Shown: piece by piece, positions 45,538-47,753 of the stretch
Numbering within the stretch: the stretch's first letter is position 1
Layout of the letters: each line of letters begins with the position of its first letter
Assembly (NCBI GenBank): GCA_964242225.1
Contig: CAXTAE010000001.1
Span: 650,169 to 714,168, forward strand
DNA length: 64,000 nt
Direction of reading: 5' to 3'
From: an uncultured Acidobacteriaceae bacterium
GTDB taxonomy: Bacteria; Acidobacteriota; Terriglobia; Terriglobales; Acidobacteriaceae
Translations under genes and position numbers: made by a program
Notes under the pieces: generated by a model
Databases searched by the model: none
What the model was told of the DNA's origin: nothing
The model's input: the letters and a program-made list of their open reading frames with translations, nothing else

Positions 45538-45613
45538 TGGAGCACCGGGTGGGGATCGAACCCACGAATACTGGTTTTGCAGACCAGCGCGTTAGCCACT
45601 TCGCCACCGGTGC
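45538..45613 (-). tRNA. tRNA-Cys(GCA)
   Basis: Minus strand GCACCGG...CTGGT-CTGCAAA-ACCAG...GTGGG-TTCGATC-CCCAC-CCGGTGC-T-CCA; 76 nt; U73 discriminator; CCA encoded. Confidence 0.97.
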
Positions 45614-45702: not shown

Positions 45703-46359
45703 CTAGTGCGGCTGTGCCGTCGTTCGCAGATACGGCTTCACGGTTTTGTAGCCCGGGAAGATCCTCTCCGCTTCCTCGTTCGACACGGCGCCGGTGATGA
45801 TCACATCGTCGCCCTGCTTCCAATTGGCTGGCGTGGCCACCTTATGCTTCGCGGTGAGCTGCATCGAGTCCAGCACGCGCAGAACCTCGTCAAAGTTGCG
45901 CCCCGTAGTCATGGGATAGGCGAGGTGCAGCTTGATGCGCTTGTCCGGGCCGACGATGAAGACTGTGCGCACGGGCGCATTGAGCGCCGCGGTGCGCCCA
46001 CCCTCTACCTCTCCGGCATCGGCCGGCAGCATGTCATACAGCTTGGCAATCTTTAACTCGGGGTCGCCGATCATGGGGTAGTTAACGGCGAAGCCGCCCA
46101 CGTCCTCAATGTCCTTGGCCCATTTGGCGTGGCTCTCCACGGGGTCGAGCGAGAGGCCGATGACCTTGGCCCCGCGCGCAGCAAACTGCGACTCCAGGCT
46201 GGCCATCGCCCCGAGTTCCGTCGTGCAGACCGGGGTGAAGTCCTTCGGGTGCGAAAAGAGCACCGCCCAGCCGTCGCCGATCCATTCGTGGAAGTGAATG
46301 GTGCCTTGTGTGGTCTCTGCCGTGAAGTCCGGGGCAATGTCGTTGATGCGAAGTGACAT
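45703..46359 (-). CDS. 1-Cys peroxiredoxin (Prx6/LsfA-like)
   Basis: FSHPKDFTPVCTTE, GRNFDEVLRVLDSMQL and ATPANW motifs; only one Cys in 218 aa; aaagga RBS before ATG 46359. Confidence 0.93.
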   Translation of the reverse strand: MSLRINDIAPDFTAETTQGTIHFHEWIGDGWAVLFSHPKDFTPVCTTELGAMASLESQFAARGAKVIGLSLDPVESHAKWAKDIEDVGGFAVNYPMIGDPELKIAKLYDMLPADAGEVEGGRTAALNAPVRTVFIVGPDKRIKLHLAYPMTTGRNFDEVLRVLDSMQLTAKHKVATPANWKQGDDVIITGAVSNEEAERIFPGYKTVKPYLRTTAQPH

Positions 46360-46468
46360 CTGATCGTTTCCTTTTTGGGAGCCTTCAGCCCCCAAGGTAC
46401 AAGTCTGGAGCGTTGCCTGCAGTTTTAGATTCGGGCGGCGCCTCCGCGTTGCAGGGTGGTGGACAAGC

Positions 46469-46505
46469 AAAAAACCCACCCGGCGGCGGCGGCCTGGGTG
46501 GGTCT
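46469..46505 (-). terminator. Attenuator terminator upstream of the peroxiredoxin
   Basis: Minus strand AGACCCACCC-AGGCCGCCGCCGCC-GGGTGGGT-TTTTT: at least an 8-bp GC stem followed by a U-tract, 109 nt before the prx ATG. Confidence 0.85.
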
Positions 46506-46531
46506 GATTTGCGTTCTGACGTCTTTGTTTG

Positions 46532-46618
46532 CTACCGTCTCGTCGCGCTCATCCCGCACACCCAGGCCCGTACACAGCAACAGGAGCGGAGGGAGGTCGG
46601 GATCGAGAGCGAATGCAT
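46532..46618 (-). CDS. Cys-rich leader peptide MHSLSIPTSLRSCCCVRAWVCGMSATRR (putative cysteine attenuator leader)
   Basis: Hand-translated ATG(46618)...TAG(46532); tandem TGT TGC TGT at codons 13-15 and TGC at codon 21; ends 26 nt before the terminator. SD is weak (AGGA, 13-nt spacing). Confidence 0.75.
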   Translation of the reverse strand: MHSLSIPTSLRSCCCVRAWVCGMSATRR

Positions 46619-46844
46619 GGCGTGAGGTAAGTCCTGGATGGAACAGAATTTGCACCGCGGCCGACGCCTTGCATCGGCGCAGGGCCGGTTTGCCCCGCTG
46701 CGGTGATCCCAAGGTACGGACAGGCGGCTCTCCTGTCAACCCGCGCGAGCCTCACCCCCGCGAAGGCGGAGGGAGTCAGTTGAACGGGCCAGCTCAGCAT
46801 GGCGCGCCGCCGCGCCGCAGTGGCTAGCTGGGTAGACTCGATGC

Positions 46845-47753
46845 ATGAAAAGAGAGCTCCCGTACACGGTGCTGGATGTCTTCGCAGAACGTGCCCTTGA
46901 AGGCAATCCGCTGGCGGTCTTTCATGATGGCCGCGGCCTCACTGACGCCACGATGCAGGCCCTGGCGCGTGAAACCAATCTTTCCGAAACCACATTTGTC
47001 CTGCCGGCGGGCGATCCGGACGAGGATATTCGCGAGGGGGTCCGAGTGCGCATCTTCACCACGGAGGAGGAGCTTCCCTTCGCCGGCCACCCCACCCTGG
47101 GTACGGCGAGCTGGCTGCACCTGAACCACCCTGCGCTGCGGGGCGCGGAGACTGTGACGCTGCGGCTGAAGGTGGGACCCGTCCCCGTGCGGTTCGAGCG
47201 CTCCACGGATCCGGCGGCGGATGGAAGCGTCTACGGCACCATGCGGCAACCCGACCCGGTCTTCGGGGAAGATTTCTATCCCACCGAGGTCGCAGCCGTC
47301 CTCGGCATGCCGGAAGCCGCTCTGCTGCCGGGCTACAGGCCCCAGGCAGTCTCGACAGGCAATCCCTTCTGTATCGTCGCGCTGCGCTCCGTCGAGGCGC
47401 TCGGGGAGCTCGCGATCCCCCAGCGCGAGGCGATGCCGTGGCTGCGGGCGCGCGGCATCCGGTGGTTCTATTGCATTGCTCCGGACCCGGCAGTCCCTGA
47501 CGTCTGGCGCGCCCGCATGCAGTGGAGCCGCGGGGAAGACCCAGCTACGGGCTCCGCCGCGGGGCCGTGTATCGCCTGGCTGGTGCGAATGGGCCTGGCC
47601 GCGTCGGGAGCTCCCGTCACCCTCAACCAAGGCGTCGAAATCCTGCGCCCAAGCCGCTTGACGGTGCAGTCGACACTGACGGGCGAGACAGTCACTAACA
47701 CTTTTGTGGGAGGTCGCACCGTTCCTGTGGCATCGGGACGCTTCTTCCTCTGA
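46845..47753 (+). CDS. PhzF-family isomerase/epimerase
   Basis: DVFAERALEGNPLAV, NLSETTF, ELPFAGHPTLG and EDPATGSAAG motifs. Confidence 0.9.
   Translation: MKRELPYTVLDVFAERALEGNPLAVFHDGRGLTDATMQALARETNLSETTFVLPAGDPDEDIREGVRVRIFTTEEELPFAGHPTLGTASWLHLNHPALRGAETVTLRLKVGPVPVRFERSTDPAADGSVYGTMRQPDPVFGEDFYPTEVAAVLGMPEAALLPGYRPQAVSTGNPFCIVALRSVEALGELAIPQREAMPWLRARGIRWFYCIAPDPAVPDVWRARMQWSRGEDPATGSAAGPCIAWLVRMGLAASGAPVTLNQGVEILRPSRLTVQSTLTGETVTNTFVGGRTVPVASGRFFL

Follow-up and report, generated by a model that had tools for sequence, protein, structure and literature searches.

Leader-peptide attenuators such as trpL, hisL, leuL, thrL and pheL of E. coli and Salmonella combine a short leader, a cluster of codons for a single amino acid, a terminator, an overlapping antiterminator and a protector. 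Here we analyzed a locus with the same layout in a stretch of 64,000 nucleotides (nt) of DNA from an uncultured Acidobacteriaceae bacterium (hereafter the window; coordinates are those of the window unless a contig is named), where a 28-codon leader with a run of Cys codons precedes a 1-Cys peroxiredoxin gene (prx) that is followed by a tRNA-Cys gene. Comparison with relatives and folding of the nascent RNA lead us to consider, with good confidence, that the element is a ribosome-mediated transcription attenuator that senses charged Cys-tRNA and gates the operon of the 1-Cys peroxiredoxin and this second tRNA-Cys. In contrast to the classical attenuators, the proposed signal is cysteine, the outputs are not biosynthetic (a peroxiredoxin and a tRNA), the hosts are Acidobacteriota and a three-way junction lies ahead of the leader. 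There is no sequence relationship to the classical leaders, and the leader and its 5′ domain were without a match in Rfam, even at E values up to 10.

Closer in the amino acid concerned are the leaderless poly-Cys small open reading frames (sORFs) of mycobacteria, the "Cys ribulon", which are cysteine-responsive, act on translation and have no terminators (Canestrari et al. 2020, 10.1101/834739). As proposed for the Acidobacteriaceae, an unannotated open reading frame (ORF) with a Cys run reads the Cys-tRNA supply there, and several such loci occur per genome. In M. tuberculosis, ribosomes stall on Cys sORFs once VapC4 has cleaved tRNA-Cys, and responses to oxidative and copper stress follow (Barth et al. 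2021, as cited in PMC13096801); a link between tRNA-Cys depletion and oxidative-stress responses would be a further point of likeness. The mycobacterial model case works by Shine-Dalgarno sequestration, is leaderless and has no terminator hairpin, whereas the leader in the window is not leaderless, having a 5′ untranslated region of about 86 nt, and is followed by an intrinsic terminator 109 nt ahead of prx. Cys-rich leader peptides without terminators were also predicted in Actinobacteria in 2005 (PMC1262725). The uORFC-8-2 motif of Rhodobacterales is a predicted Cys-codon attenuator with an intrinsic terminator ahead of cysS (Brewer et al. 2021, PMC8632094); like the element described here it has an upstream ORF (uORF) with tandem Cys codons, Cys codons within a stem, a terminator with a U run and an output in the Cys-tRNA supply chain. 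It differs in phylum, in having two Cys codons only and in its target, which is cysS and not a tRNA or a peroxiredoxin; the two were compared by description, no uORFC-8-2 model being matched in Rfam.

On the output side the nearest parallel is LsfA of Pseudomonas, a Prx6 subfamily enzyme whose induction is a sulfate-starvation response mediated by CysB, whereas the route proposed here is ribosome attenuation. LsfA, too, is on when sulfur or cysteine is short (PMC12581299; PMC4199769), and its induction on sulfur starvation exceeds 45-fold (PMC12581299), so that the parallel drawn by an earlier sequence-only reading of the window, which gave LsfA as induced by sulfate starvation, has a published basis. 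The same reading knew of no comparable control of a peroxiredoxin gene or in this lineage. Our literature search likewise turned up nothing on the element in Acidobacteria, no Cys attenuator reported ahead of a peroxiredoxin gene and no tRNA gene described as lying downstream of a leader-peptide attenuator, but Cys-codon attenuators as such are known elsewhere (10.1101/834739, PMC8632094, PMC1262725), and in that respect the novelty is narrower. In Acidobacteria almost no attenuators have assigned functions (PMC2965389). The switch principle is thus a known one; what is surprising is the conserved 5′ RNA domain and the nature of the outputs, where an antioxidant enzyme is combined with a spare tRNA-Cys or a tRNA-Sec.

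Elements of the proposed switch at the window locus

All elements of the proposed attenuator lie on the minus strand. The leader ORF, MHSLSIPTSLRSCCCVRAWVCGMSATRR (46532..46618), runs from an ATG at 46618 to a TAG at 46534-46532 and comprises 28 codons plus the stop. It sits in the 485 nt that separate prx (46359-45703, minus strand) from a divergent PhzF-family gene (46845-47753, plus strand). Codons 13-15 are TGT TGC TGT (46574..46582), three Cys codons read from the sequence that form the proposed stalling site, and codon 21 is a fourth Cys codon (46558-46556). Between the leader and the first structural gene lies an intrinsic terminator, ACCCACCC(A)GGC / GCC(G)GGTGGGT followed by T6 (46469..46505), with a hairpin energy of about -21.6 kcal/mol. 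In its stem ACCCACCC (46503-46496) pairs with GGGTGGGT (46481-46474), and the TTTTTT tract extends to 46469. The 5′ arm of the terminator doubles as one strand of the antiterminator: GGCCTGGGTG (46568-46559, leader nt 51-60) is the exact reverse complement of CACCCAGGCC (46500-46491), which makes the two structures mutually exclusive. Folding of the nascent RNA of the window paired the antiterminator strand with this terminator 5′ arm.

The third helix is a predicted protector, or anti-antiterminator, whose first segment (46596..46611) pairs with 46546-46557 in the minimum free energy (MFE) fold of the free leader. The sequence-only reading had proposed the unannotated leader with Cys codons 13-15, the GC-rich terminator, the 10-bp antiterminator and the protector, and each of them stood: the leader and its codons were read from the same bases at the same coordinates, the terminator was recovered by a terminator scan and by the MFE fold, the antiterminator strands are exactly complementary and the protector pairing belongs to the MFE structure of 46440-46640. 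A small internal hairpin, GACG...CGTC (46518..46539), folds within the antiterminator loop, where relatives have GGCG/CGCC or TCGAAG/CTTCGA. Compared with shuffles, the fold of the window leader was unremarkable for a single sequence (z = -1.49). As a single-sequence fold is no more stable than shuffles, the case rests on the comparison with relatives.

Upstream of the leader we read a sigma-70-type promoter from the sequence (46711..46739), with TTGACA (46739-46734), a 17-nt spacer and TACCTT (46716-46711). A consensus promoter scan did not list it, TACCTT having 3/6 matches to TATAAT; TTGACA-N17-TAnnnT stands at the equivalent place in 25-30 relatives. The predicted transcription start is about 86 nt ahead of the leader ATG, with a structured domain in between. 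Downstream, the 218-residue product of prx (45703..46359) is a 1-Cys peroxiredoxin of the Prx6 subfamily with the Pfam domains AhpC-TSA (PF00578) and 1-cysPrx_C (PF10417). It contains a single Cys, C45, and a PVCTTE peroxidatic motif, lacks a resolving Cys, and has Prx6-type proteins as its best solved relatives (6p0w, 7kuu, 1prx). A scan of the window found no promoter-like motif in the interval between the terminator and the prx ATG, and in relatives this spacer is as short as 43-59 nt. The downstream genes, Prx6 and tRNA-Cys, neither make nor supply cysteine; related leaders precede NIR_SIR and YeiH-family genes, as described below.

Conservation in relatives and the predicted pairing switch

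Searching 24 genomes of the same genus at the DNA level gave matches in 14 of them, with 17 loci (L002-L018) and 15 distinct upstream regions, the matching loci being syntenic from phzF to prx in all but one short match (L018). Every one of the 15 upstream regions contains a uORF, 23-39 codons long and including 4-10 Cys codons, with the consensus M..SNS..CCCGCCCCCGPARVSG, followed in each case by CCCACCC..GGGTGGG-U(n) at 43-176 nt ahead of prx. About 20 more leaders were obtained with a protein-guided scan of one genome per species, from Tunturiibacter, Granulicella, Bryocella, Terracidiphilus and other Acidobacteriota; the same scan found none upstream of Prx orthologues from Proteobacteria, Bacteroidota and other phyla. 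With a covariance model (R1) that spans the Cys run to the terminator, 24 of 401 genomes of the phylum were matched; 20 of these 24 belong to the family of the window, nearly always with a single copy each. Weak matches of the model outside the family (L115, L118, L119, L121 and L122), which by our filter have no Cys uORF, were not counted. In total, 66 distinct homologous leaders were assembled, from Acidobacteriaceae and from allied Acidobacteriota; their uORFs have 3-14 Cys codons, and the CCCACCC...GGGTGGG-U(n) terminator is almost invariant among them. The PhzF-family isomerase gene (46845-47753, plus strand) is itself syntenic with the leader in nearly all relatives, including one locus without prx (L113).

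Two types of leader could be told apart. Type 1 leaders end in ...R-V-x-x-stop with CGG-GTG in frame, whereas type 2 leaders (MF.PSHAG..CCCMCSPPCG) end in ...C-G-stop with GGG-TAG and are leaderless or nearly so. Common to both are the Cys run, a GGGT by the stop codon and the CCCACCC/GGGTGGG hairpin with its U tract, and nothing else. GGGT is present in 25 of 26 aligned type 1 leaders and CCCACCC/GGGTGGG is invariant in the alignments of the relatives. The spacing is also kept: across the 66 leaders the last Cys codon is usually 10 nt from GGGT, and GGGT is 11 nt from the stop in type 1 and 3 nt in type 2. Because the two types read GGGT(G) in different frames, its conservation reflects the RNA and not the encoded peptide. 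All relatives retain the Cys run, whereas the N-terminus of the peptide, its length and its Cys number (3-14) vary freely, which is the signature of a sensor ORF and not of a functional peptide.

In the relatives a helix equivalent to the protector is predicted to be made by the Cys-codon run itself (GCCGC..GCGGC), with GCCGC-UGC-UGUU-GC-UGCGGC pairing with the GGCC that opens the antiterminator. Usage of synonymous Cys codons hardly varies across genera (TGC TGT TGC TGC → GCUGUUGC, in the relatives' alignments of window 46559-46590), and the run is often broken by an Arg codon, CGC. The predicted GCCGC..GCGGC protector hairpin probably explains the conserved CGC and the fixed synonymous codons as an RNA-level constraint within the Cys run. 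In the window, the upstream helix 46611-46596/46557-46546 would have to block antitermination after the ribosome has passed.

The switch was modeled on nascent transcripts of the 66 leaders cut right after CCCACCC, with the ribosome represented by 27 masked nt and pairing taken from the partition function. The median probability that the terminator 5′ arm is paired was 0.23 without a ribosome and 0.06 with the stop codon in the A site; with the first Cys codon there it was 0.71, and with the last one 0.40 (paired Wilcoxon p ~1e-11 for the first Cys codon versus the stop or the free RNA, and ~1e-8 for the last Cys codon versus the stop). When the segment between the ribosome and the terminator arm was replaced by dinucleotide shuffles, mean sequestration was 0.36, compared to 0.63 for the real sequences, and 18% of the shuffles reached the real value. 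For the leader of the window the corresponding values were 0.01 free, 0.45 at the first Cys codon, 0.01 at the last and 0.10 at the stop, and the MFE structure of its full length switched from terminator to antiterminator with a ribosome on the first Cys codon. Equilibrium MFE structures under ribosome masks were discarded as a criterion, only 3/6 leaders flipping to the antiterminator, and the nascent-transcript modeling was used instead.

The sequence elements, their conservation, their geometry and the predicted pairing switch are what these comparisons establish, and they can be put together as follows. Transcription would begin from the TTGACA-N17-TACCTT promoter, giving an RNA that opens with the three-way-junction domain, and the 28-codon leader would then be translated by a ribosome. 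With Cys-tRNA plentiful, the ribosome would pass the Cys codons toward the stop, which in most relatives lies 3-11 nt past GGGT(G); the GGCC..GGGTG strand would be occluded or re-captured by the protector, the CCCACCC/GGGTGGG hairpin would form and transcription would terminate at the U tract. This placement of the stop, which in most relatives, though not in the window, would let a terminating ribosome mask the antiterminator strand, is also found in the classical attenuators. With Cys-tRNA scarce, the ribosome would stall early in the Cys run, leaving GGCC..GGGTG free to pair with CACCC..GGCC once that is transcribed; the terminator would be blocked and the polymerase would read into prx and then into tRNA-Cys. 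We infer in this way that the leader is translated, that ribosomes stall on it, that the unit responds when cysteine or sulfur is limiting or when cysteine is lost by oxidation, and that the tRNA is co-transcribed. The proposal of the sequence-only reading that a shortage of Cys-tRNA turns prx on is thereby supported by the comparative and modeling evidence.

Several observations weigh against this reading. The leader of the window is a weak version of the element: it is an atypical, Cys-poor variant with just 3+1 Cys codons, compared to 5-14 in most relatives, and its Shine-Dalgarno-like AGGA sits 13 nt from the ATG. Past the Cys run its reading frame differs from that of the relatives, which puts the stop 29 nt after GGGT and not at the usual 11 nt, so that a terminating ribosome would leave the antiterminator strand not directly covered, and its antiterminator is predicted only with stalling at the first Cys codon. 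Because of the relatedness among the 66 leaders, the paired statistics overstate their independence. At equilibrium, with the full terminator and a stalled ribosome, the terminator remains the MFE structure in 3/6 modeled leaders, and the switch must therefore be kinetic. Finally, the sequence-only reading had looked to relatives for a conserved Cys-codon uORF with a covarying antiterminator and terminator. A poly-Cys uORF and the terminator are present in every syntenic relative, and the antiterminator motif GGGT(G) is kept across both leader types, but RNAalifold on MAFFT alignments showed no compensatory covariation in the antiterminator and terminator, because the pairing bases are almost invariant.

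If the attenuator works as proposed, leader-peptide attenuation would extend to cysteine in Acidobacteriota and to outputs beyond amino-acid biosynthesis. It would tie tRNA-Cys charging, which drops on sulfur starvation and cysteine oxidation, to a peroxide-detoxifying enzyme, and would provide a ribosome-based route to the coupling of sulfur starvation and antioxidant defense seen in Pseudomonas. As a compact unit conserved in soil Acidobacteriaceae that can be cultured, the module could serve as a cysteine-responsive genetic part.

tRNA genes downstream of the leader

The unit described by the sequence-only reading comprised the leader, the terminator and prx. These parts stand, and the unit is larger than reported, as the promoter, the 5′ domain and a tRNA-Cys gene had been missed. 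This second tRNA-Cys(GCA) gene (45538..45613; found by ARAGORN, Rfam tRNA 66.3 bits) lies 89 nt past the prx stop on the same strand and has no promoter-like motif of its own in the window. Among the 43 tRNA genes of the genome, tRNA-Cys is the sole duplicated elongator tRNA. The housekeeping copy (C4:139955-140029) is on another contig, behind tRNA-Gly(GCC) (pair region C4:139784-140029). The prx-linked gene encodes a divergent isodecoder that is about 70% identical to the housekeeping copy; GCA and U73 are kept, and its acceptor stem, GCACCGG, differs from that of the housekeeping copy.

The same linkage recurs across the 66 leaders. A Prx6 gene and then tRNA-Cys follow the leader in 41 cases, and a different peroxiredoxin (36% identity, also with AhpC-TSA and 1-cysPrx_C) and then tRNA-Cys in 7, so that tRNA-Cys stands behind prx in 48/66. 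Five leaders precede tRNA-Cys with no Prx gene. They include L150, where a gene for a PIG-L family deacetylase intervenes between leader and tRNA, and L152, in which the tRNA may overlap the match to the terminator. Another 5 leaders are followed by a Prx6 gene and tRNA-Sec, and 8 by a Prx6 gene with no tRNA found, 2 of these with a short flank. In L113, L127 and L138 the tRNA-Cys gene is 53-85 nt past the terminator, and the sole TTGACA-N17-TAnnnT within 330 nt is the one ahead of the leader. The spacers between prx and the tRNA are variable and go down to 15-16 nt. Prx6 orthologues without a Cys leader (L032, L034, L036, L037 and L039) have no tRNA behind them. Together, the arrangement of these genes strongly suggests that tRNA-Cys is co-transcribed with prx.

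In the lineage with type 2 leaders, a tRNA-Sec(UCA) gene comes straight after prx in L038, L041, L045, L049, L050 and L064 and about 930 nt after it in L033, and across these seven loci it matches Rfam RF01852 at 65-70 bits. The idea that the type 2 peroxiredoxins are selenoproteins, which would explain the tRNA-Sec, was rejected, all of them having Cys at the peroxidatic site. The replacement of tRNA-Cys by tRNA-Sec in this sister lineage may point to a broader connection of cysteine status with the decoding of selenocysteine.

From these gene orders, we put at about even odds the further proposal that the constant partner of the attenuator is the second tRNA-Cys isodecoder (tRNA-Sec in the sister lineage), that it would be made mainly by read-through, and that charged tRNA-Cys would thus feed back on the synthesis of the spare tRNA-Cys. 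If so, this would be a tRNA gene controlled by its own charged form and the first under leader-peptide attenuation, and an attenuated tRNA-Cys would report oxidative loss or damage of tRNA-Cys or cysteine in addition to sulfur supply. The tRNA-Phe genes of E. coli, considered as a possible precedent with Phe-rich leaders, were set aside: K-12 pheV has a promoter only, directly ahead of the tRNA.

Sulfur context, 5′ RNA domain and competing explanations

Leaders of this kind also precede genes with a sulfur connection. In another genus of the family (L116, G219) a leader of the same covariance-model type lies ahead of a NIR_SIR sulfite/nitrite-reductase gene. The PIG-L gene of L150 (G530), which stands between a leader of the same type and tRNA-Cys, belongs to the family of the thiol-biosynthesis enzymes MshB and BshB. 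The genome of the window itself carries an independent poly-Cys leader, MKQTLTAAALCCMCCCMPRCCAGACLL (C6:142094-142177), ahead of a YeiH-family (PF03601) gene for a "putative sulfate export" transporter. This near-leaderless ORF starts 10 nt past a TTGACA-N17-TAGGCT promoter (locus L154, C6:142053-143614) and is followed by the terminator CACCCACGC..GCGTGGGT, a 53-codon hydrophobic ORF and then the YeiH-family gene; it is kept across the genus with the peptide motif CCMCC.MP.CCAG.CLL. The genome-wide scan for short Cys-rich ORFs was noisy in this GC-rich genome, and candidates lacking either a promoter or a terminator were dropped. In the type 2 and yeiH leaders the -10 box is 5-11 nt ahead of the start codon; they are thus near-leaderless like the mycobacterial sORFs, yet have terminators. 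The leaders ahead of the NIR_SIR and YeiH-family genes fit a cysteine or sulfur signal.

This context bears on the nature of the signal. The attenuator could be real while its nascent poly-Cys peptide senses a metal (Cu, Zn or Cd) or an oxidant in or just outside the ribosome and halts translation in the manner of arrest peptides. Thiol runs bind soft metals, the output is an antioxidant enzyme, and a copper-responsive, Cys-bearing uORF has been described in Bordetella (PMC9426467). We nevertheless regard sensing by the peptide as very unlikely: leaders of the same type stand ahead of tRNA-Cys and of genes of the sulfur-assimilation type, which agrees with amino-acid sensing, the types have the Cys run in common but no defined peptide motif, and the mycobacterial poly-Cys sORFs were shown to be cysteine-responsive (10.1101/834739).

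The RNA upstream of the leader forms a domain of its own. A 5′-terminal three-way junction of 51 nt (46654..46704, minus strand) starts 6-9 nt past the -10 box, which is the predicted transcription start. Its stems in the window are P1 (ACCGC/GCGGT), P2 (GGGGC-AAAC-GCCC) and P3 (GCCGATGC-AAG-GCGTCGGC). MAFFT misaligned the internal helices and the 5′ domain, and the latter was therefore folded sequence by sequence; with P1 constrained, the same junction was obtained for 30 distinct sequences from several genera. In P2 and P3 the sequence changes while pairing is kept, P3 being variable and the P2 loop reading NAAC(C/U), and RNAalifold gave 2-4 double-sided changes per P3 pair. The domain was not found in the type 2 leaders, which are leaderless or nearly so, in L026 or in the yeiH leaders, where the uORF and terminator are kept.

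The conserved junction has no obvious role in the attenuation model, and its covarying stems would suit an explanation in which the RNA from promoter to terminator (about 235 nt) is mainly a trans-acting small RNA, with read-through into prx incidental, or has such a function in addition, as rnTrpL of Sinorhizobium does. Trans-acting attenuator RNAs are known (PMC7298713, 10.1101/606483). The type 2, L026 and yeiH leaders, however, keep the uORF and terminator without the domain, and in every case prx or tRNA-Cys follows the element directly on the same strand; no target complementarity was found, no search for it having been made. This explanation we likewise consider very unlikely, and attenuation by Cys-tRNA supply remains our preferred account of the conserved uORF and terminator.

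Elsewhere in the genome a stand-alone, Cys-rich gene of 25 codons, MKKKCTSACTCTCPVCVGGGCCGCC (C7:118482-118559), has its own near-leaderless promoter and a strong terminator and faces a convergent gene; its product may be a metallothionein-like micropeptide and not a leader. The least probable explanation of the prx leader, and one to which we give hardly any weight, is that it too encodes a functional Cys-rich micropeptide (metal-binding, redox-active or a thiol partner for the 1-Cys Prx) with its own terminator, prx being separate or fed by unregulated leak-through: the stand-alone gene with its promoter and terminator, the good conservation of the yeiH leader peptide as a protein and the requirement of 1-Cys peroxiredoxins for an external reductant speak for it, but the N-terminus, length and Cys number of the prx leader peptides vary freely, GGGT, the most conserved letters after the Cys run, is kept in different frames, the same leader fronts a bare tRNA-Cys, a different Prx and a sulfite-reductase gene, and no promoter motif lies in the interval from the terminator to prx, which can be only 43 nt long. 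The genome also has a paralogous YeiH-family gene behind a uORF, MRVQTHLVPCRPLPVRCCCLPKAS, with CCC, and a small hydrophobic ORF (C2:610322-611729); no clear intrinsic terminator was seen upstream of this paralogue. In relatives, YeiH paralogues have uORFs with CCC or CCCC upstream as well.

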